The notes beneath the pieces are model-generated. The model was not told where the DNA came from. It saw nothing but the letters and a program-made list of their open reading frames with translations, and ran no database searches. This document shows, piece by piece, positions 7,527 through 24,000 of a stretch of 24,000 nucleotides of DNA. This stretch comes from Alteromonadaceae bacterium (GTDB taxonomy: Bacteria > Pseudomonadota > Gammaproteobacteria > Enterobacterales > Alteromonadaceae). The translations under genes were made by a program, and so were the position numbers. Each line of letters opens with the position of its first letter. Within the stretch, counting starts at the first letter, position 1. Where the stretch lies: positions 2,714 to 26,713 of the forward strand of contig CAXRGH010000135.1 of NCBI GenBank assembly GCA_964230195.1, in the 5' to 3' direction.

Positions 7527-10058
7527 TTAAACGGTTTTGATATCGATCAATTGCATTCTTTCTATTTCCGACACGGGCTTTATTTGACCTCGCTCTTCAG
7601 TGAACTGTATGTGTGTGTCAATATCATCCGCATTAATGAACTGTTTGAATCGCAACATCTTCTCCGGCGATTCAATGGTTTTTTTCCACTCGCACTCATA
7701 AGCCCCAATCACTTGCTCCATTTGAGCTTCTAATTCATGATTGATACCTAAGCAGTCATTGATAATTACCTCTCTCAAGTAATCTAATCCGCCTTCAAGG
7801 TTATCCATCCAAACGGAGGTGCGTTGTAAACGACCCGCAGTTCGTATATAAAACATTAAAATTCGATCGATATAAGCAACCAATGTCTGGTCATCAAGAT
7901 CAGTCGCGAATAAGTCTGCATGCCTCGGTTTCATTCCGCCATTACCGCAAACGTAAAGATTCCAACCGTTTTCAGTTGCGATAACACCAATGTCTTTGCT
8001 TTGAGCTTCTGCGCATTCCCGAGTGCAGCCAGAAACCGCAAATTTTAGTTTATGAGGAGCACGTAACCCTTTGTATCGATTCTCAAGATGAATTGCTTGC
8101 CCGACTGAATCTTGCACACCATAACGACACCATGTACTTCCCACACAGGATTTCACGGTACGAACCGCTTTCGCGTAGGCATGCCCCGTTTCAAATCCAT
8201 TATCTAAAAGCTGTTTCCAGATTTCAGGCAATTGATCGACACGAGCGCCGAACAAATCAATACGTTGTCCTCCGGTAATTTTTGTATACAGGTTATAGGT
8301 CTTCGCAATACTGCCAATGGCGATGAGTTGTTCAGGCGTGATTTCCCCTCCGGCAATTCTGGGCACGACCGAATAGCTACCATCTTTCTGCATGTTTCCT
8401 AAATAGATATCGTTAGTATCTTGAAGCGGCAAATGCTCAGTTTTCAGTACGTATTCGTTCCAGATAGAAGCCAGAATAGATCCCACCGTCGGTTTACAAA
8501 TATCGCACCCTAAGCCTTTACCGTAGCGATCTAACAGTTCATCAAACGAACGAATGTCATTCACTTTAACCAGATGGAAAAGCTCCTGACGTGAATACTC
8601 AAAATGCTCACAAATGGCTTTAGATACTTCAATCCCTGACTTCTCTAGTTCGCTATCAACAACAGACTTCAGTAAAGCACTACAACCTCCACAACCGGTT
8701 CCTGCTTTGGTGCATGATTTAACGTCGGCAATATTGCATGCGCCACTACCAATAGCATTAATGATGTCGCCCTTCGACACGTTATGACAAGAACAAATCG
8801 TGCTACTATCTGGTAGTATGTCGTTGCCCATCGTTGGGGCGTCACTAGCGCTCGGTAAGATCAATGATTCAGGGGCATCACCGAGAGGGATTTGATTGAG
8901 GTGATATTGTAGTAAGGTATCATATTCGCTCGCATCTCCGACTAAAACCGCACCTATTACCCGTTGATGTGATTCGTCTACCACCAATTTTTTGTAAACG
9001 TCAGTGACTGAATTGGCATATACGTAACTTTTCGCGCCATCTGTTTTTCCGTGAGCATCACCGATCGATGCGACATCAACCCCGAGCAACTTAAGCTTGG
9101 TGCTCATATCAGCCCCTTCAAAAGGCTGTTTTTGACCGACCAAACGATTGGCTACCGTGCGGGCCATAGCATAACCTGGTGCCACCAATCCAAAGATTTG
9201 ATCATCCCAAGCAGCGCATTCGCCAATAGCATAAATGTCAGGCTCTGACGTCTCGCAATAATGATTGATGCTAATACCGCCGCGAGCACCAATGGATAAA
9301 TCGATCTGATCCGCTAGCTCATCGTGTGGACGTATACCTGCAGAGAAAACGATCATATCAGTCTCTAAGTGGGTACCGTCACTAAAATTCATGCGATATC
9401 GCGATGACTTTCCTTCAATAATCTCAGTGGTTGCCTTACCTGTATGAACACCAACACCAAGCTCTTCAATCTTCTTACGTAGAATGTCACCACCCATTTC
9501 ATCAACCTGAACCGACATTAATCGTGGAGCAAATTCTACAACATGAGTTTCAAGGTCGGCCTGTTTTAACGCATTAGCAGCTTCAAGCCCAAGAAGCCCT
9601 CCACCAAGAACAACTCCTTTCTCACTTTTCTCTGCTGATGACTTAATTTCATGTAAATCGTCGATAGTCCGATACGTCAAACAGTGAGGTTGGTCATTAC
9701 CTGGAATACTGGGAACAAAGGGATATGAACCGGTTGCGAATATCAGGACATCATATTCAAAGACATCACCGCTTTCAGTAATAACAACTTTGTTAGCTTT
9801 ATCAATGTTTTTCACCCAAGCACTAAGTCGATAGTCAATACCGTGTTCATCATAATACTCTGTTGTTGTCAGCGATAATGCACCTTCCGATGTTCCGTCA
9901 AAGAACGATGACAAGTGCACACGATCGTATGCCAAGCGCGATTCACCTGATAGCACAAGGATAGATGCGTTCAGCTCGGACTGAATAGCTTGCTCGATAA
10001 AATAATGACTCACCATGCCATTACCTATGATCACTATACGTTCTCGAGTTGTTACCAT
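7527..10058 (-). CDS. nirB: NAD(P)H-dependent assimilatory nitrite reductase large subunit (FAD/NAD, BFD-like 2Fe-2S, siroheme/4Fe-4S domains)
   Basis: N-terminal IVIIGNGMVSH dinucleotide fold. BFD-type CSCHNVSKGDI...CTKAGTGCGGC. Sulfite/nitrite reductase cluster motifs SCVGSTWCRYG and VSGCTRECAEAQSKD. 843 aa, as for NirB. AGGAG RBS. Confidence 0.95.
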   Translation of the reverse strand: MVTTRERIVIIGNGMVSHYFIEQAIQSELNASILVLSGESRLAYDRVHLSSFFDGTSEGALSLTTTEYYDEHGIDYRLSAWVKNIDKANKVVITESGDVFEYDVLIFATGSYPFVPSIPGNDQPHCLTYRTIDDLHEIKSSAEKSEKGVVLGGGLLGLEAANALKQADLETHVVEFAPRLMSVQVDEMGGDILRKKIEELGVGVHTGKATTEIIEGKSSRYRMNFSDGTHLETDMIVFSAGIRPHDELADQIDLSIGARGGISINHYCETSEPDIYAIGECAAWDDQIFGLVAPGYAMARTVANRLVGQKQPFEGADMSTKLKLLGVDVASIGDAHGKTDGAKSYVYANSVTDVYKKLVVDESHQRVIGAVLVGDASEYDTLLQYHLNQIPLGDAPESLILPSASDAPTMGNDILPDSSTICSCHNVSKGDIINAIGSGACNIADVKSCTKAGTGCGGCSALLKSVVDSELEKSGIEVSKAICEHFEYSRQELFHLVKVNDIRSFDELLDRYGKGLGCDICKPTVGSILASIWNEYVLKTEHLPLQDTNDIYLGNMQKDGSYSVVPRIAGGEITPEQLIAIGSIAKTYNLYTKITGGQRIDLFGARVDQLPEIWKQLLDNGFETGHAYAKAVRTVKSCVGSTWCRYGVQDSVGQAIHLENRYKGLRAPHKLKFAVSGCTRECAEAQSKDIGVIATENGWNLYVCGNGGMKPRHADLFATDLDDQTLVAYIDRILMFYIRTAGRLQRTSVWMDNLEGGLDYLREVIINDCLGINHELEAQMEQVIGAYECEWKKTIESPEKMLRFKQFINADDIDTHIQFTEERGQIKPVSEIERMQLIDIKTV

Positions 10059-10336: not shown

Positions 10337-12031
10337 TCATGGCGCCAGATAATATTGAATGATAATGATCGCAAACAGAACCCCTGATATTAGCTGCCAA
10401 AATACCACTGGGTTACGCTGTAATAAAGGAGGGCGTCTACGTTCAGTATATTTAACATTTGGGTGTCGAAGGTCATAAAGGAACTCAGAAATTTCTTGGT
10501 ATCGGTTATCAGGGCTAACCTTAAGTGCGCAACGTAATGTATCGTCTATCCAAAGAGGTATATCTCGTTGAGAGTCTAATACGCTTCGATATGAGAGCCT
10601 ATTTTGAGCTGATATAGTACGAGCTTTGGCAACATCCGTTCCATAAGGATGACGGTCAGACAACATTTGATAACAGACCGCTGCAAGCGAGTATAAATCA
10701 GACACTGGCCGTGGAAAATCACCGATAAAATATTCAGGTGCAGCATAAATAGCCGTTCCTGGTATAGCTCCCTGACTTTGATATCCTATTCCAGCCGCGC
10801 CAAAAATATGTACAGAACCCAAATCAATTAATTTGATATTACCATCGTTTGTCAGTAATACATTTGCTGGACGAATGTCTTGATGTAATAACGAGCTTCG
10901 ATGAATGGCTTGTAATCCTTTCCCCATTTCCTCTGTTACATATCGAATCATCTCGATTTGACGTTCAGGATTGTCCATCAACCATTGGGCTAATGTTTGC
11001 CCTTCTATATATTCAATTAAGATATAGGCCTTGCTTGGTGTCGTTGGTAGATGAGCCCGAACAACATGTCTGGAGGTTATTCTTCTCAAGGCCCATTGCT
11101 CCATTCCGAGTTGTTCAAAGGCGACAGGGTCGTCGGCACACTCTAAACTCAAGCATTTTAAAGCAAATAATGATTCGGCTTTATCCTTTACCAAATACAC
11201 ATGGCTTCTTGGGCTTTGATACAAGCTCCGTATTACTTGAAGTCCATCGACTTTCTCACCTTCATTTAATGGTGCTGGTGTTAATAATTTCTCCGGCTCA
11301 TGTTGGGTGCGTTCACTCAGGCCATCGATTCGAATGACTTGTAACGTTAAGTTATCGGTAGCGCCAAATTGCAACGCCTTATCCATCCATTGGCTCAGTG
11401 TGTGATCGTCGTTAAAGAATACTGCATTATCATAGTCATTGATTATCAATGTCTCGATAATATCGGACAGACCATCGGTTAGTAGTAGCAAGACATCGTC
11501 AGATTCCAACTGATGAGTACTATACCGTAAGGGCTTGATATCGGGCATTCCCAAACCTGCAGATAAGTAATATTGGCCGGCTTCAGTTGCCACTTCATCA
11601 TCCTCAGTTAAAAGGGTTAACTGTTTGTTTCGTAATAAATAAGCTTGGGAATCGCCGATATCAAAAAGGTGACAGATATTATCCTTAATAACAGCCCCAG
11701 TGAAGGTACAGACGTAGCCCTTGTCAAGATTTAAATGGAGGTCACGAGATTTAGAATTAGTATATAAATTGTTGTTTATAAGCGACAATAATTGGCGACA
11801 ACTCTTTTCGGTCGACCAAATATCCGGCGTAAGATAATACTCTTTTATAAATTGCTGAGTTGCATAGTGGCTTGCTGCACCACTTACCGAGCTTGAACTT
11901 ATTCCGTCAGCAATTGCGAAGGCAAATCCCTTAGTTTTTGTATGAGCCTCAGTATCAATATATGCGGCGCATGCGTCCTGATTAGTTGATTTTATGCCAG
12001 CTATTGATGTTGATACAAAAGAAATATTCAT
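10337..12031 (-). CDS. Bifunctional PP2C-type Ser/Thr phosphatase / Hanks-type Ser/Thr protein kinase with a C-terminal TM anchor
   Basis: N-terminal PPM motifs (NQDA, FAIADGISSS, FDIGDSQAYLL, LLLTDGLSD, DNLTLQVIRI). Kinase motifs: FALKC (VAIK-like Lys), HQDIRPANVLL (catalytic loop, non-RD), IDLGS (DFG-like), APEY. C-terminal hydrophobic helix VVFWQLISGVLFAIIIIQYYL. Confidence 0.88.
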   Translation of the reverse strand: MNISFVSTSIAGIKSTNQDACAAYIDTEAHTKTKGFAFAIADGISSSSVSGAASHYATQQFIKEYYLTPDIWSTEKSCRQLLSLINNNLYTNSKSRDLHLNLDKGYVCTFTGAVIKDNICHLFDIGDSQAYLLRNKQLTLLTEDDEVATEAGQYYLSAGLGMPDIKPLRYSTHQLESDDVLLLLTDGLSDIIETLIINDYDNAVFFNDDHTLSQWMDKALQFGATDNLTLQVIRIDGLSERTQHEPEKLLTPAPLNEGEKVDGLQVIRSLYQSPRSHVYLVKDKAESLFALKCLSLECADDPVAFEQLGMEQWALRRITSRHVVRAHLPTTPSKAYILIEYIEGQTLAQWLMDNPERQIEMIRYVTEEMGKGLQAIHRSSLLHQDIRPANVLLTNDGNIKLIDLGSVHIFGAAGIGYQSQGAIPGTAIYAAPEYFIGDFPRPVSDLYSLAAVCYQMLSDRHPYGTDVAKARTISAQNRLSYRSVLDSQRDIPLWIDDTLRCALKVSPDNRYQEISEFLYDLRHPNVKYTERRRPPLLQRNPVVFWQLISGVLFAIIIIQYYLAP

Positions 12032-12094: not shown

Positions 12095-12928
12095 TTATTC
12101 CGGAATAGTATCCGCCACTTGTAATTTACGCTTTGGTGCCGTTCGGTAATGCGTTGAGTATAATGTAAGCCCCGTAAATGCGAGACCACCAACCAGATTA
12201 CCAAGCGCTGTTGGGATCTCATTCCATATGAAGTAATCCATCACGGAGAAGTCGCCCCCCATAATCAATCCAAACGGGAACAAAAACATATTTACAACTG
12301 AATGCTCAAATCCCATGAAAAAGAACAACATGATCGGCATCCACATTGCTAGCACTTTACCACTTACATGAGTTGAAATCATGGCTCCAACAACACCCAT
12401 TGATACCATCCAGTTACAAAGCATACCCCGGAGAAAGATAGTCAACCAACCAGCAACACCGTACTCTGCGTAGCCCAAAGTACGAGATTCTCCGATAACA
12501 GATACTTTCTCAGCAATAGCACCACCATCAGTATTGAAACCATAAGTGAACATAAAGGCCATCATGAATGCAACGGTCAATGCGCCCGCAAAATTACCTA
12601 AAAAGACCAATCCCCAGTTTCTCAGTATCTGAGGCCACGTCACGCCTGGCCGACGCGCCAACCATGCAAGAGGCGTCAAGACAAAAACCCCAGTTAAAAG
12701 ATCAAAACCCATCAGATATAACATACAAAATCCAACAGGGAACAAGACGGCACCAAGCAAAAATACGCCGGTTTTCACCGCGACTGTAATTGCAAATACC
12801 GCAGCTAAAGCTAAGATGGCGCCAGCCATAAAAGCCCTAACAAGAGTATCTCTTGTTGACATATATATTTTTGACTCACCGGCGTCTACCATTTTGGTAA
12901 CGAACTCGGCGGGAAGTAAGTAAGCCAT
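12095..12928 (-). CDS. nirC: Formate/nitrite transporter (FNT) family channel, probable nitrite transporter
   Basis: 277 aa with six predicted hydrophobic helices. FNT signatures include LLGAVLFPVGFCMLYLMGFDLLTG, GNFAGAL, GMLCNWMV and FFFMGFEHSVVNM. Sits in a nitrite reductase / NasR context. Confidence 0.88.
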   Translation of the reverse strand: MAYLLPAEFVTKMVDAGESKIYMSTRDTLVRAFMAGAILALAAVFAITVAVKTGVFLLGAVLFPVGFCMLYLMGFDLLTGVFVLTPLAWLARRPGVTWPQILRNWGLVFLGNFAGALTVAFMMAFMFTYGFNTDGGAIAEKVSVIGESRTLGYAEYGVAGWLTIFLRGMLCNWMVSMGVVGAMISTHVSGKVLAMWMPIMLFFFMGFEHSVVNMFLFPFGLIMGGDFSVMDYFIWNEIPTALGNLVGGLAFTGLTLYSTHYRTAPKRKLQVADTIPE

Positions 12929-13393: not shown

Positions 13394-14647
13394 ATGGCAA
13401 TTGAAATGAAATCAGCAACCAACAAGTCTGACAGCTTGTTTCAATTCAATCAGCGATTTTTGGACGCTACTAGGCAAGCAAAAAATGAAGCTCTTGAGCA
13501 ATTATTGATCAATTGTCAATTGGTCAATGCTACCGCAATGCTTGTTCATCAACTCCAACGAGAGCGCGGGCTTTCATGCATTTATCTAGGTAATCGAGAT
13601 CCACTTTTAAAACAGGAATTGCTGCAACAACATCAACGGTCAACTTCGTATAGCGACATATTACAACAACTCTTAGAACATACAATTCTTGATAAAAAAG
13701 GAAATCATAGTGAACTACGATTGATTTGTTGTATATCGAACGCGTTTCAAAAGCTTCAACTCGTCGTCAAGCAGCGTCGTGAAGTGCTGCAATGCAATGA
13801 TACGGCCGAAATCACTCTTGATAGGTACGCTGACACGATATTAGCCTTGTTTGTCATTATCTTAGAAGCTGCAGATCTTACCTTAGACCATCAAATCAAT
13901 CGCCATTTAATGGCATTGTCCAGCTTAATGTTTGGTAAAGAGTTTGTGGGCCAAGAACGTGCGCGAGGAGCATCGTTTTTTAGCCACCGTTGTAACAATG
14001 AATTATTATCTGAACAATTAAGCACCTTAAAACAGAAACAACAACAACATTTTTCGCTATTTCAACAGCTTGCATCAACCGAAGTGAAAAGTATTTGGCA
14101 TGCAAACGTAAGCTCACACGAACTACAGCGCCAAGTCACGCAGCTTCGATTAATTATAACGTCAGCAGCGAGTGCAAATGAAAGCGAAGATCTCAGTGAT
14201 GTTTGGTTTACGGTCTGGACAAGCTGGATTGACCAAGTTCAACAAGTAGAACAAATAATGTGTTCTCAATTATTTTGTTTAGCCGAAGCTCAAATAGCAC
14301 GACAAGGGCGAAAGAATGAAACAACCGTCTCTCTCATGCACCCCTTTGGATCAATGGATTGGTTTACAGAGCAAACATCCTTTGAGAGCTGCCCTAGCCG
14401 CACCGTTCTCGATTTCTTGCAATTTCACGCTGAAAATGCCGAAGAACTGTCTAAGATTGTGAATGAGAAAGAAAAGCAACTCCAAGAACAGAACATCATT
14501 AAACAAGCAAAGTTACTACTCATAAAACATTATCGATTGTCTGATGAGCAGGCTTACAAACAACTTCGTTCGGCGGCAATGAAAAACAATACAAGCATCA
14601 TCCAAATTGCTGAAATGATTCTTAAAAAGTATCACAAAGGTCAGTAA
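13394..14647 (+). CDS. nasR: Nitrate/nitrite-responsive transcription antiterminator (NIT sensor domain + C-terminal ANTAR RNA-binding domain)
   Basis: The C-terminus IIKQAKLLLIKHYRLSDEQAYKQLRSAAMKNNTSIIQIAEMIL fits the ANTAR consensus. The N-terminal ~300-aa helical region with VHQLQRERGLSCIYLG and GQERARGASFF is typical of NIT domains. The gene is divergent from a nitrite cluster that carries leader terminators. Confidence 0.85.
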   Translation: MAIEMKSATNKSDSLFQFNQRFLDATRQAKNEALEQLLINCQLVNATAMLVHQLQRERGLSCIYLGNRDPLLKQELLQQHQRSTSYSDILQQLLEHTILDKKGNHSELRLICCISNAFQKLQLVVKQRREVLQCNDTAEITLDRYADTILALFVIILEAADLTLDHQINRHLMALSSLMFGKEFVGQERARGASFFSHRCNNELLSEQLSTLKQKQQQHFSLFQQLASTEVKSIWHANVSSHELQRQVTQLRLIITSAASANESEDLSDVWFTVWTSWIDQVQQVEQIMCSQLFCLAEAQIARQGRKNETTVSLMHPFGSMDWFTEQTSFESCPSRTVLDFLQFHAENAEELSKIVNEKEKQLQEQNIIKQAKLLLIKHYRLSDEQAYKQLRSAAMKNNTSIIQIAEMILKKYHKGQ

Positions 14648-15284: not shown

Positions 15285-15983
15285 ATGAAAACCATCGGCC
15301 TTCTCGGCGGCATGAGTTGGGAATCCACCACCAGTTATTATCAAGCAATCAATCGTGGAGTTCAGCAATACTTAGGTGGACTTCACTCCGCTAAAGTGTG
15401 TCTAGTGAGTGTTGATTTTGCCGTGATTGAAATCCTCCAGCGTCAAAACGAATGGCAAAAAGCCGGCGCTTTATTAACTGAAGCCGCAAAACACATAGAA
15501 GCTGGTGGCGCTGATTGTTTATTAATTTGCACAAACACAATGCACAAAGTCGCTCCTCAAATCGCTCGTTCTATCAACATTCCGCTACTCCACATAGCGG
15601 ATTGTACTGGTCAAAAACTACAACAAGAGCAAATACAAACCGTCGGTCTTCTCGGCACTCAGTTCACCATGTCAGAGGATTTCTATACAGATAAACTCAT
15701 CAATAATTTTGGTATTGATGTATTGGTGCCCAGCGCGGCGCAACAAGAAGACATTCACAGCATCATTTATGATGAACTCTGCCTGGGTAAGGTAAATCAT
15801 ACATCAAAGCAACGGTATCTTGAGATTATTAATGCTCTCCACCAACGAGGCGCACAAGGGATGATATTGGGATGCACAGAGATTGGCCTGCTGGTGCAAC
15901 AAACCGACACTGACATTCCTTTGTTTGATACTACCGCTATTCATGCACAAGCAGCGGTAGACTTCGCTATTACGACTGAATAA
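15285..15983 (+). CDS. Aspartate/glutamate racemase family protein
   Basis: MKTIGLLGGMSWESTTSYYQ, LLICTNTMH and ILGCTEIGLL carry the two catalytic Cys motifs of Asp/Glu racemases. The ATG at 15285 has GGAGA 8 nt upstream; the track start at 15270 is TTG. Confidence 0.85.
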   Translation: MKTIGLLGGMSWESTTSYYQAINRGVQQYLGGLHSAKVCLVSVDFAVIEILQRQNEWQKAGALLTEAAKHIEAGGADCLLICTNTMHKVAPQIARSINIPLLHIADCTGQKLQQEQIQTVGLLGTQFTMSEDFYTDKLINNFGIDVLVPSAAQQEDIHSIIYDELCLGKVNHTSKQRYLEIINALHQRGAQGMILGCTEIGLLVQQTDTDIPLFDTTAIHAQAAVDFAITTE

Positions 15984-15996
15984 AAGGCAAGAGTTT

Positions 15997-16269
15997 ATGA
16001 CATCCAAACCTCAATCTCTGCGTGATTTACCGGGACTCGGTCCAAAAAGCGAGGAGCAACTTAAGCGCTTAGGGTTTGATAATGTTGAAACCTTTATGGC
16101 TCACGATCCATTGACCATTTATCAAGCTTACAGCAGTGCCTATGGTAAGAATCTCAATGCCCTTTATGCCATTGTTGGTGCCCAACAAGGCTGTGACTGG
16201 CGACAAATCAAACGAACGCGTAAGACCGAACTATTGATGCGATTAGATGATTTGGGACTTGCTCCATGA
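15997..16269 (+). CDS. Stand-alone TfoX C-terminal domain protein
   Basis: LRDLPGLGPKSEEQLKRLGFDNVETFMAHDP is a helix-hairpin-helix motif typical of the TfoX/Sxy C-terminal domain. Only 90 aa; the N-terminal TfoX domain is absent. Confidence 0.7.
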   Translation: MTSKPQSLRDLPGLGPKSEEQLKRLGFDNVETFMAHDPLTIYQAYSSAYGKNLNALYAIVGAQQGCDWRQIKRTRKTELLMRLDDLGLAP

Positions 16270-16354
16270 TGAATGAAACAAGTTTGATGTGAGTCTGACA
16301 CTTGGGTGTCCATACTTGACGGTTGAGAATCAATTGTTCAGGAGGAACTACCCA

Positions 16355-17077
16355 ATGGATCATGAAGAGAAGTTACTCGAATTTTTATACGTTGCCCCAG
16401 TCGCCCTTATTCAATTTGATGGTAGCGGCAATGTCACCTTAGCTAACCCGAGAGTTGCTCAACTGTTCAACCGCTACGCACCGGGAGGCTACTTTGCTAA
16501 TTTCCTAACTTTCCTTGATGACGTGTTGCCCGAGTTGAAAAAGGATATTGTGAATTTTCCTCATAAAGGTGGTCAGATCATGGAGAATAAGCGAGTCTGC
16601 TTGCAAGCACCTTCACAACTCGCGCAAGAAGAATTGTGGATGGACGTTACCGTCATGAAACAAGATGATGAGCGCTATATTGCATCCCTCAACAACGTGA
16701 CCGACCAAGTAGTTGCAGAAAACGAGCGTTATGTGTCAGAGCAATATCTCACCCAGCTGTTAGAAAAAGTAAACAAACATGTTGCTTTCACCCTCGACCC
16801 CAACGGCATTATCAACAGCTGGAACATTACAGGTGAAACCTATATTACCGATAGTCCTTATGCACTCGGGAAAGTGCTGTCACAGCTATTCCCCATCAGT
16901 AACCAAGATAACTCATTGATACTTGCACAAGCGAAAGAAATGGGGCAACACAAAACCACAATCCAATTTGCAGACAAAAGTGGGGAGTCACACGCTTCTT
17001 GCTTATATGTCTCAGGAATACATGACCAAAGAGATAAGTTTCAAGGCTTTTCGGTCGTGTTAACGCTGGGCGAATAG
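16355..17077 (+). CDS. Output-less tandem PAS-domain protein; first gene of the PYP cluster
   Basis: Two PAS-like cores: VAPVALIQFDGSGNVTLANPRVAQLF... and HVAFTLDPNGIINSWNITGETYIT...GKVLSQLFP. No effector domain. The ATG at 16355 is preceded by AGGAGG at 9 nt; the track start at 16289 is GTG. Confidence 0.65.
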   Translation: MDHEEKLLEFLYVAPVALIQFDGSGNVTLANPRVAQLFNRYAPGGYFANFLTFLDDVLPELKKDIVNFPHKGGQIMENKRVCLQAPSQLAQEELWMDVTVMKQDDERYIASLNNVTDQVVAENERYVSEQYLTQLLEKVNKHVAFTLDPNGIINSWNITGETYITDSPYALGKVLSQLFPISNQDNSLILAQAKEMGQHKTTIQFADKSGESHASCLYVSGIHDQRDKFQGFSVVLTLGE

Positions 17078-17106
17078 CCCATTAAAATTCAATCAGGAGA
17101 GATAAA

Positions 17107-17454
17107 ATGAATTTTGACTCAACCAATATCCGCGAATTGCACTCGGGAGCTTCTCAGTTTAATGCGGCAAACTTTGGCATTGTTAAGATGGATCACGATG
17201 GCAATGTCACTGATTACAATAGTAGCCAAGAACGGTTTACCGGTATGTCTAAAGCATCGGTGATGGGAAAGCACTTCTTTTCTCTAGTTGCACCTTGTAC
17301 CAACAACTTCATGGTTGCTCAGAAATATGACAACCAGTCGTCATTAGATGAGAAGGTGCCGTATACCTTCACATTAAAGATGACGCCAACCCCCGTTACA
17401 TTGCGCTTACTCAAAGACAGCAGCGCCCAATATTTGCTGTGTGATTGGTCGTAA
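17107..17454 (+). CDS. pyp: Photoactive yellow protein (PYP) homologue, stand-alone 115 aa
   Basis: Collinear with H. halophila PYP from memory. [24 protein letters not shown] aligns with [38 protein letters not shown] aligns with [26 protein letters not shown] aligns with YTFDYQMTPTKV. Chromophore Cys (C64=C69), Tyr42 and Thr50 equivalents are present. Position 46 is Gln and position 52 is Met. GGAGAG RBS. Confidence 0.8.
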   Translation: [115 protein letters not shown]

Positions 17455-17464
17455 TATCGCAATC

Positions 17465-17490
17465 ATAAGAAGGGGCTATCCCCTTCTTAT
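17465..17490 (+). other. Perfect 11-bp stem-loop between pyp and the transducer gene (RNA stabiliser / partial terminator candidate)
   Basis: ataagaagggg-ctat-ccccttcttat, starting 10 nt after the pyp stop. No U tract follows. The next RBS (caggagaga) comes immediately after. Confidence 0.5.
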
Positions 17491-17505
17491 ACTCAGGAGA
17501 GACCT

Positions 17506-18672
17506 ATGTGGAAAAGGATTTTTACAGGTACAAGCGCCGTATTGGCGTTAGCGTTGTCAGTGGCAGGTTTGTTTTTCCAAGTAAAACAAGATGCCGCTGG
17601 GTTGAGTTGGATCTACGGCTTGAGCAGTTTGCTTCTGATAACGTCAATCGCTGCCGTCTGGTTGTTTTACGGCAAGCCGCTATTCAACATCATTCAGCAA
17701 ATCCCCAGCCATGGTCTAGATGATACCTCTGATGATGTCTCTCACCTCAATCAAGGACTCAATCGACTTCAGAGCCAAATGCTGTCGGCCCAGCAACTTT
17801 GTCATCAAAAGCAGCAACAGCTCGATGCATTAACTCAAGCAATCGCTGTGCTAAAGCTCGAATTAGATGACCCCACGGCTTCGCAAACTAACACCAATAA
17901 ACAGGATCAACAGTCTATTCAAGACGCTTTTACGCAATCCGAAAATGCCGCGGATTATGCCACTGAGACGTTTGAAACCTTATATCACTCAGTCAACACA
18001 CTTGGCACTAGCTATCAAGACGTTCGAAAAAGTGCCGAAAAGCTGAACAATAATGCCAATGAGAGTGCAGAGATGGTCAATACCTCTCGCGCCTCGTTAG
18101 AACAATTATCCATGCAAGTATCAGAGATTGCAGCCGTCACCAACAGTATTGCTGATATTGCGAGTATGACACAGCTACTGGCACTAAATGCTTCCATTGA
18201 AGCGGCTCGTGCAGGTGAGTCGGGGAGAGGTTTTGCGGTCGTTGCTGATGAAGTGAAAAAACTCGCTGAACAAACCGATGAAGCCACTAAGCGTATCACC
18301 TCAATATCGCAAAGTATCTCAACCGCAAGTCAAGCGTCATCTGATGCAATGACCACCATTGCTGACCGCATGATCAGTGTGAGGGAAACTCTCACTGAGG
18401 TGGTATCCCACATTGAAACCCAATGGTCCAGCGTCCAAGGCGTTTTAGGACAAATGGGGCAAGCAGCTGGCACTGTCAGCGGCCTTAAAGGGATTCTTAA
18501 TACATCTAAAGAGACGGCGTTAATGCCATTCCTTGATACTACCGCGAGTCAAGACACACGCCATTATTTTCACTCCATTGATTCCGTATTAGCAGAGTTT
18601 AGTATCCCTCTAGAAGTCAAAGATACAGAAGCAAACCCATCAGAGTATGACCACTCAGAGCTTTCCGTTTGA
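17506..18672 (+). CDS. MCP-type transducer with a TM hairpin and no periplasmic sensor domain
   Basis: Two N-terminal TM helices ([17 protein letters not shown] and [23 protein letters not shown]) are separated by only about 6 residues. The cytoplasmic coiled coil carries the MCP tip [34 protein letters not shown]. 388 aa. Confidence 0.85.
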
Positions 18673-18695
18673 AGCCAACTACAAGTGAGCCTGTT

Positions 18696-19502
18696 ATGTT
18701 AGATGCACCTATTCCATTTTCTTTGCCGCCCCAAGAGTCAATTAAGGCGCAATCTCCTCAACTTGTTTTAGATGGCAAAAGCTTATCCATAGAACAAGTG
18801 ACTCAATTCATCAAAAAACAACATCACGTGTCCCTGTGCAAGCGAGCGGCTTCACCTGATGCATTGCAAGTGAGTTGTGATGTGATGGCGCAACAACTGA
18901 ATGACGGCAAGCAAATCTACGGGGTCAACACCTTGTTTGGAGGGCTTGCTAACTTAGGGGTCGATGATCCTATTGCGCTGCAGCAAGAACTCATCACATC
19001 TCACCATTCGGGCGCGGGAAATGACCTCGCCATTGACGATGTTAGAGTAGCCATGTTATTGCGGGTGAATTCCATTTGTCCACTGTTAGAGCAAAAAGCA
19101 TCACCATTGAGTGTCCACTTCCCCGTGCACGCTGAACAATTTAATCAAAATCTGAACTCTCAAGGTTTCGGTTCAGCGCAGTTAACGCAATCCGCTGGGC
19201 ATTTGTTAAAAACACATTTGGCAGCCAGTTTGATAATCTATCTACAAGCCGCTTATATTCGGGCAGATCAAAAACACTTATCCATTGACTCCGCGTTTAG
19301 CCCTTCCACTCGTCGACTAATTCGGGTATTTTGTGAACTTAACGGGTTGTCACTCACCGACAATTGGGCAGTACTGTCAGGTGTTCGCAACGAGCTGAAA
19401 CAAGCGTTTGTGGCTAATGTTGAACACGGCATTGACACATTCGCATTTGAATTCACGCAGGATGCGGTATCTTCTGCTCAAACGGATGAAAATGATTTAT
19501 GA
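18696..19502 (+). CDS. Aromatic amino-acid ammonia-lyase (HAL/TAL/PAL family) homologue, internally truncated and lacking the MIO-forming Ala-Ser-Gly core; possibly a pseudogene
   Basis: IYGVNTLFGGLANLGV...LQQELITSHHSGAGNDLAIDDVRVAMLLRVNS matches the lyase N-terminal signature (YG[IV]NTGFG...LQ.NL..SHA.G.G..L....VR..M..R.NS). The protein is only about 268 aa against about 500-520, and no GxxGASGDL motif is present. The tail (LAASLIIYLQAAYIR...LTDNWAVLSGVRNELKQAF) weakly resembles the family C-terminus. The ATG at 18696 is preferred over the TTG at 18669. The stop overlaps the kinase start (ATGA). Confidence 0.6.
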   Translation: MLDAPIPFSLPPQESIKAQSPQLVLDGKSLSIEQVTQFIKKQHHVSLCKRAASPDALQVSCDVMAQQLNDGKQIYGVNTLFGGLANLGVDDPIALQQELITSHHSGAGNDLAIDDVRVAMLLRVNSICPLLEQKASPLSVHFPVHAEQFNQNLNSQGFGSAQLTQSAGHLLKTHLAASLIIYLQAAYIRADQKHLSIDSAFSPSTRRLIRVFCELNGLSLTDNWAVLSGVRNELKQAFVANVEHGIDTFAFEFTQDAVSSAQTDENDL

Positions 19503-21757
19503 CGACACTTGCCTCGCTATTGACTCAACAAGGTACACCCATTGAGTTGTCATACGACACAGATGGACTCAAGAACGCTGAAAATAACCAATCCATTCGC
19601 TTCATGGATGATGTCATTAGTCGTCGCATTCGCTATACCCGAAATTGGTGTCAAAAACATCAAAAAACTCATTCCTTTGACCATGCCTTTTTTCCCGAGG
19701 AGACAGGGCACAAGACGTTGTTGTATCGGCGAGTAACACTGGATCCTGATGGCCTCAAGATCAGTCCATTTCTAGCTCAAGAAGGTTATGTATTTAGCGA
19801 CGCATTTGAATCTCAAATTATTAATGCCTGTAACGACGCGGTATTACTCTGTGAGGCTGAGCCGATTGCCAGCCCAGGCCCTCGCATTATTTACTGTAAT
19901 AAAGCATACGAAACAATGACCGGTTACTCAGCAGCGGAAATGCTGGGAAATACACCACGTATTTTGCAAGGTGAGCAGTCATCGAAATTAGCCATTAAAA
20001 ACATCGCTATTGCACTACGAAAATGGCAGCCCATCAAACAACATATCGTTAATTATCGTAAAAATGGCGATGCTTTTTGGGTTGAATTAAATATTTCGCC
20101 GGTTACTGACGAAACAGGATGGTACTCCCATTGGATTTCCATTCAGCGGGATCTATCAATGGAAATAACCCACCAGCAGCATCAGTATCACATGCAAAGA
20201 ATGATGGAACGCAGTGGAGTGGGTACGTGGATTTATGATGGCCAAAAAGAACAGTTTAATTTTGACTGTAATGGTCTCGCATTACTCAATCTCGATACCG
20301 CTCAACACTGCGTTGCCTTGAGCGCTGTCACAGAACAACTCACTAAGCATCACTCATGTGATTTGAAAGCAAAGTTAGACGAAGCCTTAAACAGTGTATC
20401 CGGTTTAGAAATCGTGCTAGCCATGGGTGATGATCCAACAAAATATTTTCAGTTCAAAGGTGAGCGTTATTTTGATGTCACCCAACAGCACGCGACGTTA
20501 TCGGGTATCATGTTGGATATTACCAAAGAAAAACAGACGCAACTTGCTTTACAAGAACAGCGCGAGGCGATGATTGAAAACGGTAAACTTGCCGCCCTTG
20601 GTCGACTTGCTGCTGGTGTCGCCCATGAAATTAACAACCCACTGTCAGTCATCAATGTCATGTTAGATATTCTGGATATCAAATTACCTGCGGGCGATAT
20701 CAACTATCTGCAAGAGCAGCAGTTCTCGACAAAGCTTCGTGATGCGTCTGAGCGAATCGAACAGATAGTGTCGAGTTTATCCGACATTTCAAAAGCAAAT
20801 CGTAAGCGGGATACGGCGGTATCAGTCAATGTCACACGAGTAACCACAGAAACACTAGCACTGTTTCATCAGCTTTATCAGGCAGATGGGATTCAGATCA
20901 TTGATATTATTCCCAACCAACCTGCTTATGTTATGGCGCCACCCGGCACAATCCAACAGGTCATTGTTAATCTCTTAAATAATGCAAGAGACGCAGTTTC
21001 AGGAAACACCAGTAAGCGCATCAGTGTCACCGTTGAGATACTATCAACACACGTCGTGTTGCATGTAAAAGACAATGGAGAAGGGGTACCAGAGGCGATC
21101 CAGAAAACGTTATACGAACCTTTCGTCACAACGAAACCACCTGGCAAAGGCACTGGGTTAGGGTTATCAATTGTGCATGGGTTGATATCATCCTTGGGCG
21201 GAAAAATCACCTGCCATTCCGCTGATGTCGGCGCTTATTTTAGTGTTTCACTGCCTTTATGCGAGAGCATCGCAAGTGCATGTGCAGGTCCACAAGGTAT
21301 GACAACGATAGGGAACAATCAAAATTCAACTGCATTGCTTACCGCTTCTGGGAGCACAGTGTCATGCCTAGTGGTTGACGACAATCAACAACTTGCTCAG
21401 TCACTATCATCGTTACTGACGTTGTTAGGTTGTGATACCTGCATAGCTGAGAGTGGTGAGTCTGCGATTCATTTACTTAAAAAGCAGTCGTTTGATCTCA
21501 TTTTGACGGATATCAAAATGCCATCAATGGACGGTTGGGCCCTACTGGATATTATCCATAGAGAAAACCTTGCACCTGACAGCTTGTGCTATGTCATTTC
21601 AAGTCTCGGTAATAATGGGTTAAAAGCGCCATCTGTAGACTCAACTCGAGTTAACGGTATTTTGCCTAAACCGGTAAGTCGTACCGAGCTCATCGGTATT
21701 ATTGACGCGGTGAAAGAAAATCGACAACAGCAACAAACACTGCAAACAATATCCTAA
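19499..21757 (+). CDS. Hybrid sensor histidine kinase: unknown N-terminal region, LOV-like PAS (Cys replaced by Pro), second PAS, HisKA, HATPase_c, receiver
   Basis: LOV-like segment: PRIIYCNKAYETMTGYSAAEMLGNTPRILQGE...IVNYRKNGDAFWVELNISPVTDETG..ISIQRD. H-box AAGVAHEINNPL, N-box LLNNARDA, G1 DNGEGV, G2 GKGTGLGLSIV. Receiver: VVDDNQ...DLILTDIKMPSMDG...PKP. Confidence 0.88.
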   Translation: MTTLASLLTQQGTPIELSYDTDGLKNAENNQSIRFMDDVISRRIRYTRNWCQKHQKTHSFDHAFFPEETGHKTLLYRRVTLDPDGLKISPFLAQEGYVFSDAFESQIINACNDAVLLCEAEPIASPGPRIIYCNKAYETMTGYSAAEMLGNTPRILQGEQSSKLAIKNIAIALRKWQPIKQHIVNYRKNGDAFWVELNISPVTDETGWYSHWISIQRDLSMEITHQQHQYHMQRMMERSGVGTWIYDGQKEQFNFDCNGLALLNLDTAQHCVALSAVTEQLTKHHSCDLKAKLDEALNSVSGLEIVLAMGDDPTKYFQFKGERYFDVTQQHATLSGIMLDITKEKQTQLALQEQREAMIENGKLAALGRLAAGVAHEINNPLSVINVMLDILDIKLPAGDINYLQEQQFSTKLRDASERIEQIVSSLSDISKANRKRDTAVSVNVTRVTTETLALFHQLYQADGIQIIDIIPNQPAYVMAPPGTIQQVIVNLLNNARDAVSGNTSKRISVTVEILSTHVVLHVKDNGEGVPEAIQKTLYEPFVTTKPPGKGTGLGLSIVHGLISSLGGKITCHSADVGAYFSVSLPLCESIASACAGPQGMTTIGNNQNSTALLTASGSTVSCLVVDDNQQLAQSLSSLLTLLGCDTCIAESGESAIHLLKKQSFDLILTDIKMPSMDGWALLDIIHRENLAPDSLCYVISSLGNNGLKAPSVDSTRVNGILPKPVSRTELIGIIDAVKENRQQQQTLQTIS

Positions 21758-21832
21758 GCTTGTTACAAAGTGTGCGTTAAATCCTAGGGCATTGTCGACT
21801 AATCTTTTGTTAACGTGTGTTTAAGGATAAAC

Positions 21833-22549
21833 ATGAAAATACTGTTAGCAGAAGACGACCCTCAACTTGGCCCCATCATTGCCGACTACCTCAATCTCCA
21901 CGATTTTGAGGTCACTCATGTTGACTGCGGCAAAGACGCCATGAACGCGTTGGCGGAAACCTCCTTTGATGCCATTGTGCTTGATCTCACACTACCGGAT
22001 GAAGATGGTCTAGTGATTTTGCGTAAGATTAGACAGTGGCTTGAGACTCCCGTGCTGATTTGCTCCGCAAGAGGGACCGATAATGATCGAATTACCGGCC
22101 TAGAATTCGGTGCTCGCGACTACTTAACCAAACCCTTCGCGTCAAAAGAATTGGTGTTGCGACTGCGCAATCTTGTCAACGGCGTGAGCCAATCTCACAA
22201 TAAGCCTGCCCAAGATATTGAGTTTGGTCCCTTCCGCCTCGATCAACAGAAAAAACAACTGATTAATACTCAAATAGACAGTAGTATTCCCTTGACGCCA
22301 AAAGAATACGGGTTGCTTCTCATTATGGGACGTCGTCCCGGTCATGTGTTTTCCCGTAGTGATCTTATTGATGGCCTTCCACAACTTGAAGGTCCAGAAA
22401 CCTTACGTGCAATTGACATACTGATCAGCCGACTTCGACGGAAAATTGAAACGGATGCAAGGGCGCCTCAATACATCAAAACCGTCACTGGATTTGGCTA
22501 TAAACTCAGCACTCACAACTGCCTATCTACTGCAATAGACGACGCCTAG
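21833..22549 (+). CDS. OmpR/PhoB-family response regulator (receiver + winged-helix DNA-binding domain)
   Basis: MKILLAEDDPQL, DAIVLDLTLPDEDG, and KPF in the receiver. C-terminal LTPKEYGLLLIM...SRLRRKIE...IKTVTGFGYKL. The ATG at 21833 has AAGGA upstream; the track start at 21815 is less likely. Confidence 0.9.
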   Translation: MKILLAEDDPQLGPIIADYLNLHDFEVTHVDCGKDAMNALAETSFDAIVLDLTLPDEDGLVILRKIRQWLETPVLICSARGTDNDRITGLEFGARDYLTKPFASKELVLRLRNLVNGVSQSHNKPAQDIEFGPFRLDQQKKQLINTQIDSSIPLTPKEYGLLLIMGRRPGHVFSRSDLIDGLPQLEGPETLRAIDILISRLRRKIETDARAPQYIKTVTGFGYKLSTHNCLSTAIDDA

Positions 22550-22553
22550 CGGC

Positions 22554-22868
22554 TTACCAATCGCCCACTTTTCCCATACTGTTAGCGGGTATCTTGTCAC
22601 CAAGCACAACATGACTGAAAGAGACGTGAGGGCAATCCTGTTTCAGTTGTGACTGAAAAGCTTCCATATCAAACTGGGTATGCAATGTAGGGACGACGAA
22701 CAAATGTAGCTCAGAGAGTCCAGACTGCTCAAAGACTTTTACTGCACAATCAGACACGGTGGACAAACCCAACACTTGGCCTTTAACCTCAGACAGTGAT
22801 ACGTTCTTTCCATTAATCTGAATCTTTTTATCATTTTGCGCTAAACATTTTATGTTATTGAAGTGTAG
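22554..22868 (-). pseudogene. 3' remnant of an adenylate-forming enzyme gene (acyl/4-coumarate-CoA ligase-like C-terminal domain only)
   Basis: Open frame from the stop at 22869: ...LAQNDKKIQINGKNVSLSEVKGQVLGLSTVSDCAVKVFEQSG..LHLFVVPT...FQSQLKQDCPHVSFSHVVLGDKIPANSMGKVGDW. This matches motifs A8-A10 (GR.DD.IKI.G..V.L.E[IV]E..L......D.AV......G....FVV....IP....GK). The approximately 400-aa N-terminal adenylation domain is absent. A possible further fragment (FHGDELMLKR, out of frame) lies near 22915-22975. Confidence 0.6.
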
Positions 22869-23015
22869 TTAATTTTTGCTATTTTTCCACCTTGATACAG
22901 CAAGCAAACAGAGAACATTTACGTTGGATATGGCATTTTGATAGCCCATCTTTTAAGCATTAATTCGTCGCCATGAAAAGGTCAATTAACACATGCTTCC
23001 AGCTTCTAAAGCGCT

Positions 23016-23053
23016 AAGCCGCACATCCCAATTGGGCTATGCTTGTGCGGCTT
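23016..23053 (-). terminator. Hairpin spanning the ybiT stop codon; weak terminator candidate
   Basis: aagccgcaca (23016-23025) pairs with tgtgcggctt (23044-23053), with a nested palindrome cccaattggg in the loop. Only a short T run follows on the minus strand. Confidence 0.3.
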
Positions 23054-24000
23054 TCACCTGTAAATACGCCTCGTAACTTCCCTTGAAATCAACGATTCCC
23101 TCTGGCGTTAAATCGATAATGCGGTTAGCCAATGAAGAAACAAACTGTCTATCATGGCTGACAAAGAATAAGGTCCCTTCATAATGCTCTAGTGCGAGGT
23201 TGAGACTCTCAATCGATTCCATATCCAAGTGGTTAGTAGGTTCATCCATGATAATCACATTAGGAGCAGCCATCATAATTTTGCCAAATAGCATACGCCC
23301 TTGTTCTCCACCTGAAATCACTTTGACTGACTTAGTGATATCCGACTGGGAGAACAGTAAACGCCCAAGAATACTGCGGACGGTTTGGTCGTCATGATGA
23401 GGCTGACGCCATTGGGTCATCCACTCGAAAAGGTTCATATCCTCTTCAAAGTCTGCGGAATGGTCTTGGGCATAGTAGCCAACATTGACATTTTCAGACC
23501 ACTTAAATTCACCCGAGGACGGTGCGTATTCGTCAAGTAAGGTGCGAACAAGTGTTGTTTTACCAGCACCGTTTTGTCCAATAATGGCAACCCGTTCACC
23601 GACCTCAAAAATTCCTGACAGGCCAGAGAAAACATCCCCTTCTTCAAACCCTTTGCTTAAATTTTCCACTTCAAGAATATTGCGGAATAGCTTCTTCTGT
23701 TGATTGAAGCGAATATACGGATTCACACGGCTTGATGCTTTGACTTCTTCTAACTGAATTTTGTCAATCTGCTTCGCACGTGAGGTTGCTTGTTTTGCTT
23801 TTGACGCATTGGCAGAGAAACGACTCACAAACTGCTGAAGCTCAGCAATCTGAGCTTTTTTCTTTGCATTATCCGCCAGTAAACGTTCTCTTGCTTGAGT
23901 CGCGGCAAACATGTATTCATCGTAATTCCCAGGGAATACACGCAATTCACCATAATCAAGATCCGCCATATGTGTGCACACCGAATTCAAGAAATGTCTG
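23037..24000 (-). CDS. ybiT: ABC-F family ATPase (YbiT-like), 5' end beyond the window
   Basis: [49 protein letters not shown], Walker [10 protein letters not shown], signature LSGGEQGR, Walker [12 protein letters not shown]. Collinear with my recollection of E. coli YbiT. The frame stays open to nt 24000. Confidence 0.88.

Follow-up and report, generated by a model that had tools for sequence, protein, structure and literature searches.

Deletion of both chromophore-supply genes in a clade-C photoactive yellow protein cluster of an Alteromonadaceae bacterium, and a tandem-PAS protein as candidate partner of the photoreceptor

The signalling target of photoactive yellow protein (PYP) has been a question since the 1980s, and both the idea of a PYP that works through a chemoreceptor without a sensor domain and the gene neighbourhood treated here are already in the literature. 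The neighbourhood lies within 24,000 nt of an Alteromonadaceae contig (GCA_964230195.1, CAXRGH010000135.1, positions 2,714 to 26,713 of the forward strand), the whole of which is called the window below. It comprises genes for a tandem-PAS protein, a PYP homologue, a chemotaxis protein of the methyl-accepting type (MCP), a hybrid histidine kinase (HK) and an OmpR-type response regulator (RR), together with remnants of genes for the tyrosine/aromatic ammonia-lyase TAL and the p-coumaroyl-CoA ligase pCL. We think it probable that this is a clade-C PYP cluster of marine Gammaproteobacteria that has recently lost both chromophore-supply genes by deletion, with the tandem-PAS protein as the likely reader of PYP. 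New here are the restriction of the MCP adjacency to one subclade, the tandem-PAS protein or its N-terminal domain (N-PAS) as the conserved partner, and the loss of both chromophore genes in one strain.

The same gene set is found in the clade-C loci of Alteromonas and Salinibius (WP_163110134, WP_032094334 and WP_119395087; PMC9664959), whose PYPs are 65-70% identical to that of the window and carry the residues Y/Q/C. Data Set S3 of Xing, Gumerov and Zhulin 2022 (PMC9664959) gives the neighbourhood for Alteromonas hispanica, Alteromonas sp. and Salinibius halmophilus (clade C, Y/Q/C) as a row of RR, AMP-binding, an unnamed gene, PYP, MCPsignal, aromatic amino acid lyase and hybrid HK; the cluster is not discussed there, and the tandem-PAS gene is left as 'None'. 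In the Alteromonas and Salinibius loci the RR and pCL genes stand 5' of the tandem-PAS gene, whereas in the window lineage they are located 3' of the HK gene, and both TAL and pCL of the window are remnants.

Two published arrangements connect PYP with chemoreceptors. Single-domain PYPs of clade B often adjoin chemoreceptors that have no sensory domain, and for these it was proposed that PYP docks on the receptor as CetB does on CetA and that the pair serves phototaxis (PMC9664959). The receptor of the Leptospira example (PMC9664959, Fig. 6C) resembles that of the window: it is made up of transmembrane (TM) helices and a signalling domain and lacks a sensor domain; the PYP, however, belongs to the other clade, and no tandem-PAS, TAL, HK or RR is reported in the model. 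Dohmen et al. 2025 (PMC12826048) described 12 MCP-PYP fusions, among them those of Methylotuvimicrobium alcaliphilum and Nitrincola alkalilacustris. One PYP domain, that of Nitrincola (60.8% identical to Halorhodospira halophila PYP), was shown to be photoactive (447 nm, 0.5 s). As in the window locus, the fusions link PYP with a chemoreceptor signalling domain, but there PYP forms the C-terminus of the MCP, whereas the window has separate genes, pyp followed by mcp. The accompanying operon survey recorded MCP only as a fusion, and its Table 2 gives no MCP count in pyp operons (PMC12826048). The initial annotation considered the locus a light-signalling module that matches no described system. 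With the neighbourhood tabulated, the sensor-less receptor model published and fusions known (PMC9664959, PMC12826048), that claim of novelty is not supported.

Other PYP systems share single features with the locus. The pyp-pcl-tal operon of H. halophila joins PYP with both chromophore enzymes, as do the sister strains of the window strain, which has lost both; unlike in the window, genes for an MCP, an HK or a tandem-PAS protein do not adjoin it. In Idiomarina loihiensis, and in clade-C PYP-GGDEF loci, a soluble PYP is the presumed regulator of the product of an adjacent GGDEF gene; in the window, in contrast, no enzymatic output domain remains in the pyp neighbour, and the cluster has an MCP in its stead. 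Rc-PYP of Rhodobacter capsulatus is a single-domain PYP that binds a small soluble partner, PBP, in a light-dependent manner (bioRxiv 10.1101/2021.06.01.446672). The 16 kDa PBP and the 27 kDa tandem-PAS protein are likened here by description, not by sequence. Finally, sensory rhodopsin II and HtrII combine a photoreceptor with a transducer that has no ligand-binding domain, as PYP and MCP would, yet the proteins are unrelated. The rhodopsin contact is made between transmembrane helices of two membrane proteins, whereas the window PYP is soluble, so that any contact between PYP and MCP must be cytoplasmic.

The PYP homologue and its pocket

The open reading frame (ORF) at 17107-17454 (+) encodes a single-domain protein of 115 aa, and its first assignment as a PYP is borne out by profile, PDB matches, pocket residues, predicted fold and published orthologue catalogues. 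It gave a PAS match and a match to the TIGR02373 photo_yellow model of 62.5 bits (E 3.9e-17), below the cutoff of 143.05. This model recovers only about 20% of PYP homologues (Xing, Gumerov and Zhulin 2022, PMC9664959), and the same study lists the orthologues as 'photo_yellow (< cutoff)', clade C, those of Alteromonas, Salinibius and Vibrio with the residues Y/Q/C. Orthologues of the window protein are also included in Dohmen et al. 2025 (PMC12826048). When searched against the PDB with phmmer, the 30 best matches were all H. halophila PYP, to which the window protein is about 31% identical, with the E46Q mutant 1ot6 at the top (E 4e-14). The AlphaFold 2 model (pLDDT 86, pTM 0.81) superposes on PDB 2PHY with a TM-score of 0.89 and an rmsd of 2.0 Å over 122 columns, the N-terminal cap included, and its top 40 PDB structure matches are all PYP or PYP-derived.

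Relatives were collected by scanning one genome per species for the motif APCTNNFM, which gave 80 loci, and a metagenome scan added 15; the clade-C PYPs of Burkholderiales have the motif APCMNNFM and fall outside these sampled loci. Residues Cys64, Tyr37, Gln41, Thr45 and Met47 of the window PYP correspond to Cys69, Tyr42, Glu46, Thr50 and Arg52 of the H. halophila protein, whose numbering is followed for the pocket. Kept in the window are V31, Y42, N43, F62, V66, A67, P68, C69, T70, F96 and M100; the replacements are Glu46 to Gln, a natural E46Q, and Arg52 to Met (R52M). Cys69, the site of the p-coumaric acid thioester, is invariant in the relatives (84/84), and Tyr42, Phe62, Ala67 and Pro68 are near-invariant among the same 84 sequences. 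Glutamine occupies position 46 in the window PYP and in all 8 gammaproteobacterial relatives from the genome collection. According to the literature, E46Q is found in about 2.6-3% of accepted PYPs, and the H. halophila E46Q mutant is still photoactive.

These residues bear on a different account, in which a clade-C PYP is a PAS sensor of some signal other than light (redox, a small molecule) and the loss of TAL and pCL is irrelevant to it. Such an account would fit with the lack of a characterised clade-C member, with the exchange of Glu46 for Gln across the subclade, with the intact state of the PYP, tandem-PAS, MCP, HK and RR genes here after the chromophore genes were lost, and with the redox neofunctionalisation that Xing et al. 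proposed for some PYP domains (PMC9664959). It sits poorly with a thioester cysteine that never varies and pocket residues that hardly do, with TAL and pCL in the cluster of all 11 flanked gammaproteobacterial relatives and in many distant loci, with the photoactivity of the H. halophila mutant that has the same exchange, and with a predicted fold that includes the PYP-specific N-terminal cap. We regard a non-light sensor as improbable.

Loss of the TAL and pCL genes

PYPs with 63-73% identity to that of the window are encoded at 12 loci of gammaproteobacteria (L001-L008, L089-L092): in Glaciecola, Alteromonas, Vibrio sp. Of14-4, Salinibius and a Pseudomonadales metagenome-assembled genome (MAG), and in metagenomes. 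The canonical gene order at these loci is RR, pCL (convergent), tandem-PAS, PYP, MCP, TAL and HK, although Salinibius has kept the MCP and has no HK and no RR. TAL and pCL are full-length in each of the relatives with enough flanking sequence (11/11), as well as in many distant loci. The pieces of tal- and pcl-like genes in the window had been taken for remnants of the chromophore pathway, and they are genuine ones, with intact counterparts in sister contigs. These contigs are 96-99.9% identical to the window in the flanks, have the same HK cluster and differ at one residue of PYP.

The TAL remnant is located at 18696-19502 (+; alternative TTG start 18669). Its Lyase_aromatic match consists of the first ~99 of 466 profile positions and a C-terminal stretch. 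A blastn comparison of the window with sister contig L081 shows an internal, in-frame deletion of 888 bp (~296 codons); the segment is flanked by two copies of TGAATTC in the sister strains, and a single copy of this 7-bp direct repeat remains in the window, at 19066-19072 (no strand). The MIO-forming motif GSIGASGDLIPL, with its Ala-Ser-Gly triad, is present in L081 and lies inside the lost 888 bp. Contigs L081 and L082 carry a full-length TAL, and L104, to which the HK cluster-mate P0116 led, begins within the region deleted in the window; none of them has the TAL deletion.

The pCL remnant, at 22554-22834 (-), corresponds to the last 92 codons of a 380-aa gene, as found by tblastn with the Alteromonas pCL. 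It includes a convergent ORF of 73 aa at 22554-22775 (-), which has no Pfam hit and can be aligned with the C-terminal end of pCL from relatives and with the 99%-identical, intact pCL of a sister strain. No AMP-binding match to the remnant was found with Pfam, and in-frame stop codons are located upstream of it. Contig L104 contains TAL, HK, RR and, at the corresponding position, an intact pCL of 380 aa with an AMP-binding domain. Compared with L104 by blastn and by junction sequences, the window lacks 880 bp that comprise codons 1 to ~288 of pCL and the 18 bp upstream of them; the junction is 22834/22835 (no strand). Metagenome contigs L087 and L088, from two other runs, share exactly this junction.

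Judged from the sister sequences, the intact order in the window lineage is tandem-PAS, PYP, MCP, TAL, HK, RR, pCL. TAL and pCL were lost through two separate, recent deletions, and all of the signalling ORFs are intact. The pCL deletion, being shared, probably preceded that in TAL. Because TAL lacks its MIO region and pCL its first ~288 codons, the window PYP is expected to be apo and the module blind unless other enzymes substitute. The strain probably no longer makes holo-PYP from the cluster, its PYP then being chromophore-less.

Since the contig is metagenome-assembled, we considered that the remnants may be assembly artefacts and the true genome intact. The TAL-deleted product is unique to the window contig, and exact look-ups of this product and of the window HK returned no record. 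The pCL junction, however, is reproduced in two independent assemblies (L087 and L088), and that in TAL preserves the reading frame exactly and is bounded by 7-bp repeats, far shorter than assembler k-mers. Misassembly of both genes is therefore, in our view, very improbable.

One further change is confined to the window copy. Codon 60 of its pyp gene (17284-17286) specifies Leu; Gln stands at this position in the six near-identical metagenome contigs retrieved (P0001), without exception, and in most clade-C relatives. The site is four residues before the chromophore cysteine and equals Asp65 of H. halophila; Q60L may reflect relaxed constraint after the loss of the chromophore genes. Taken together with a pair of independent deletions, each inactivating a gene, within 6.5 kb of sequence that diverges from intact sister strains by about 1%, this substitution next to the chromophore loop could mean that the whole module is a decaying relic in the window strain, neutral since the loss of pCL, in which further lesions have yet to accumulate. 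Five signalling genes spanning about 5.2 kb are nevertheless free of frameshifts and stops, and the deletions hit exactly the two biosynthetic genes, a pattern that looks targeted and not random. Counts of synonymous and non-synonymous changes against the near-identical contigs gave too few substitutions for a selection test. General decay seems to us somewhat unlikely. Close environmental strains with and without TAL and pCL provide a natural experiment on the role of the signalling genes when the chromophore is missing. Runs SRR28144536 and SRR28144544 represent strains with the deletions, SRR5052267 and ERZ28548084 strains without them. The run accessions of the metagenomes were also sought in the literature for their habitats, and nothing was found.

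Tandem-PAS protein, chemoreceptor and the route of the signal

The tandem-PAS gene at 16355-17077 (+; alternative GTG start 16289) encodes 240 aa. The protein gave weak Pfam PAS matches only, and its N-terminal ~125 aa, the N-PAS, are barely recognised by Pfam. An AlphaFold 2 model (pLDDT 80.5) has two PAS folds and a long connecting helix, and Foldseek searches with it returned tandem-PAS proteins. A hidden Markov model built from the window protein and close homologues matches the ORF adjoining pyp in 78 of the 80 clade-C loci, which span at least six phyla (Proteobacteria, Myxococcota, Actinomycetota, Spirochaetota, Bacteroidota and Verrucomicrobiota). The gene stands 5' of pyp in gammaproteobacteria and 3' of it elsewhere.

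Outside gammaproteobacteria the homologues are longer (370-480 aa) and of two main forms. N-PAS, PAS and GGDEF are combined in Alphaproteobacteria, Acidimicrobiales and Myxococcota, and this form is the pyp neighbour in at least 24 of the 80 loci. In Bacteroidota, Nannocystis, Verrucomicrobiota and Spirochaetota, N-PAS is followed by an H-box and HATPase_c, and the partner gene by one for a REC-HisKA-HATPase protein, often with pCL and TAL as well. An exhaustive representative search of 1.84 billion proteins yielded 265 representatives of the N-PAS family, with the domain almost always at the extreme N-terminus; a word-indexed homology search had given only 6 fragments. Among the 103 longer members the accompanying domains were GGDEF (50/103), HATPase_c (23/103), EAL (6/103) and MCPsignal (1/103). 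An independent locus, L105 (3595-6776; GCA_030012885.1, JASCQV010018855.1), holds a clade-C PYP (motif GICMNNFMVAQRF) and then a stand-alone tandem-PAS protein of 275 aa; its third gene (P0167) encodes 632 aa with N-PAS, a multi-TM region and an MCP signalling domain. A tandem-PAS/N-PAS gene is kept in every MCP-containing locus, L105 included.

Some loci depart from the common pattern. In a Tagaea sp. MAG (L037, 7902-9569) an apparent in-frame fusion of PYP with N-PAS-PAS-GGDEF was not relied on, as the last PYP strand is missing and the fusion is maybe a frameshift of the MAG; in a second Tagaea MAG (L043) PYP and the N-PAS-PAS-GGDEF partner are separate genes. Two pairs of PYP and partner stand in tandem in the Acetobacteraceae MAGs L073 (8001-11284) and L075 (257-3506), one partner having ~385 aa, of which the C-terminal region is unassigned, and the other ~440 aa with GGDEF. 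At L029 the opposite strand carries a further, divergent PYP-like gene. The partner in Acetobacteraceae loci L066, L071, L079 and L080 is 373-386 aa long and consists of N-PAS, PAS and ~130 C-terminal residues without a Pfam domain; this variant may carry an unknown output domain.

The MCP gene (17506-18672, +) encodes 388 aa with an MCPsignal domain of 96.7 bits (PF00015). The initial annotation rightly called its product sensor-less: the two TM helices (approximately residues 5-27 and 33-56) are about 5 residues apart and leave no periplasmic domain, and neither a sensor domain nor HAMP was found with Pfam. The TM hairpin, with neither a periplasmic domain nor HAMP, is shared by the orthologues, and the hairpin tip of the signalling domain is canonical and near-identical among them. 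In the survey of pyp neighbourhoods the MCP gene lies directly 3' of pyp in all 12 gammaproteobacterial relatives, so that the adjacency is not peculiar to the window strain; over the genome collection an MCP gene occurs within 3 kb of pyp in 8 of 80 loci. The adjacency is confined to the gammaproteobacterial subclade. A conventional chemoreceptor with 4HB_MCP sensor, HAMP and MCPsignal is encoded elsewhere in the window (1969-3966, +), and the organism thus has a chemotaxis system for the sensor-less MCP to feed. Freshwater metagenome contigs L096, L102 and L103 encode PYP homologues of ~40% identity with an MCP gene ~2 kb downstream and a hybrid HK upstream; they may represent another association of PYP and MCP outside the marine gammaproteobacterial subclade.

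From the order of the genes, PYP and MCP had first been paired directly, after the manner of sensory rhodopsins and their Htr transducers. In a two-part receptor of this kind PYP would dock on the sensor-less MCP, as in SR/Htr or CetB/CetA, and tandem-PAS, HK and RR would be separate branches or accessories. The invariable position of the MCP after pyp in the 12 relatives, the natural MCP-PYP fusions, the model published for clade-B PYPs and the retention of the MCP in Salinibius without HK or RR are all consistent with it. The MCP adjacency is nonetheless a trait of one subclade, while tandem-PAS/N-PAS adjoins pyp almost throughout clade C, accompanies it at every MCP locus and is itself fused to an MCP in L105. 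Because the tandem-PAS gene, and not the MCP, is the tightest clade-C link, the direct pair is not the best-supported wiring, and we consider it unlikely. Since N-PAS occurs elsewhere in fusions with GGDEF, kinase or MCP output domains, it appears likelier than the MCP to be the direct partner of PYP. The pattern of association is that expected if N-PAS were to read PYP and pass the signal to a lineage-specific output.

Under the reading that we prefer, a PYP cluster with the tandem-PAS protein as reader, an intact TAL would make p-coumaric acid and pCL would activate the acid for thioester attachment to the PYP cysteine. Blue light would then drive a photocycle altered by the natural Glu46-to-Gln exchange, and the N-terminal PAS-like domain of the tandem-PAS protein would read the signalling state of the soluble PYP. 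Elsewhere this domain would provide the input to diguanylate cyclases and histidine kinases; the gammaproteobacterial tandem-PAS protein, which has no output domain, would instead act as an adaptor to the TM-hairpin MCP, with taxis via CheA/CheY. The adaptor would perhaps also feed the hybrid HK and the OmpR-type regulator for a transcriptional output.

Several points weigh against this reading. No clade-C PYP has been characterised biochemically (PMC9664959), and a literature search for a later report of p-coumaric acid binding or a photocycle in the clade found none, so we infer chromophore binding by the window PYP. The TAL deletion is known only from the window contig, and PYP could still be supplied with chromophore by another lyase or CoA ligase of the same genome. 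The proposed link of N-PAS to PYP draws on guilt by association and domain fusions. When 15800-23200 was scanned for promoters and terminators, the numbers matched those expected from shuffling and hence say nothing on operon structure or co-transcription. No gene of the cluster, the HK gene included, gave a Pfam match to Hpt, so transfer from the hybrid HK to the RR is not assured. Lastly, the orthologous RR gene, present in most relatives, lies upstream of the cluster and in the other genera is transcribed separately.

A wider proposal, which we put forward tentatively as possible rather than probable, is that N-PAS is a dedicated receiver of clade-C PYPs across phyla that feeds a fused or adjacent output (GGDEF, kinase or MCP). 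In marine Gammaproteobacteria it would be a free adaptor, and PYP, tandem-PAS protein and TM-hairpin MCP would form a three-part phototaxis receptor. If so, a direct downstream partner would be named for an entire PYP clade, and the window strain would be a natural chromophore-null variant. As a near-universal neighbour of clade-C pyp, this small unnamed domain is a concrete candidate binding partner in cultured relatives that have the cluster, namely Alteromonas hispanica, Vibrio sp. Of14-4 / V. tetraodonis and Salinibius halmophilus.

Kinase, regulator and surroundings of the cluster

The hybrid HK gene (19499-21757, +) encodes 752 aa with PAS_9, HisKA, HATPase_c and REC, and the RR gene (21833-22549, +; alternative GTG start 21815) a protein with REC and a winged-helix Trans_reg_C domain. 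All domains of both are above the Pfam cutoffs (in the RR, Response_reg 89 bits and Trans_reg_C 70.7 bits). The kinase is built of an N-terminal domain of ~100 aa, a LOV-like PAS, a second PAS-like region, HisKA, HATPase_c and REC. The description of its PAS as LOV-like stood in part: the domain resembles LOV and matches YtvA_fam with 95 bits (cutoff 250), but the adduct-forming cysteine is absent. Aligned with YtvA, the window HK has GNTPRILQG and the orthologues GxxPR(I/F/L)LQG in place of GxNCRFLQG, with Pro at the Cys position in all six. With proline for the adduct cysteine in the window HK and its six orthologues, the kinase is not a canonical LOV photoreceptor, and this candidate function was rejected. 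Residues 1-100 (19499-19800) are conserved among the HK orthologues, contain a Cys/His motif, RRIxHTxxWCxxxxxxHxYD, and gave no Pfam or NCBIfam match.

A route from PYP and PAS through the HK to the RR, as first suggested, is plausible; with Hpt lacking and the RR separate in relatives, it is the weakest link of the scheme. The partnership of HK and RR is uncertain, being deduced from adjacency alone.

The ORF list reproduces the gene map as first drawn, with six co-directional genes and a convergent CoA-ligase remnant, and the junctions are identical: 29 nt between tandem-PAS and PYP, 51 nt between PYP and MCP, 23 nt between MCP and the TAL remnant, an ATGA overlap of the latter with HK, and 75 nt between HK and RR. 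Recurrence of the same gene set in 12 other gammaproteobacterial loci argues that the arrangement is not due to chance. In the window lineage the RR-pCL block lies 3' of HK, and in the other genera 5' of the tandem-PAS gene; this shift would be consistent with a canonical cluster that was duplicated in tandem and then lost its outer copies. The GC content is even over the whole window, on which ground horizontal acquisition was rejected as an account of the cluster boundaries. A scan of the whole window with Rfam gave no match.

Downstream the cluster is followed by an ABC-F gene. On the upstream side of the cluster are genes of nitrite assimilation, those for a NIT-ANTAR regulator and an Asp/Glu racemase, and a TfoX_C ORF. 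The last of these, at 15997-16269 (+), directly 5' of the cluster, encodes 90 aa comprising the TfoX C-terminal domain only, and sister contigs L081 and L084 have it in the corresponding position. The nitrite-assimilation island includes a Form_Nir_trans transporter and a NirB-type reductase, with a gene for a bifunctional PP2C phosphatase/Ser-Thr kinase between them (10337-12031, -), adjoining those at 12095-12928 (-) and 7527-10058 (-). The embedded kinase is eukaryote-like, and the NIT-ANTAR regulator of the island is encoded at 13394-14647 (+).

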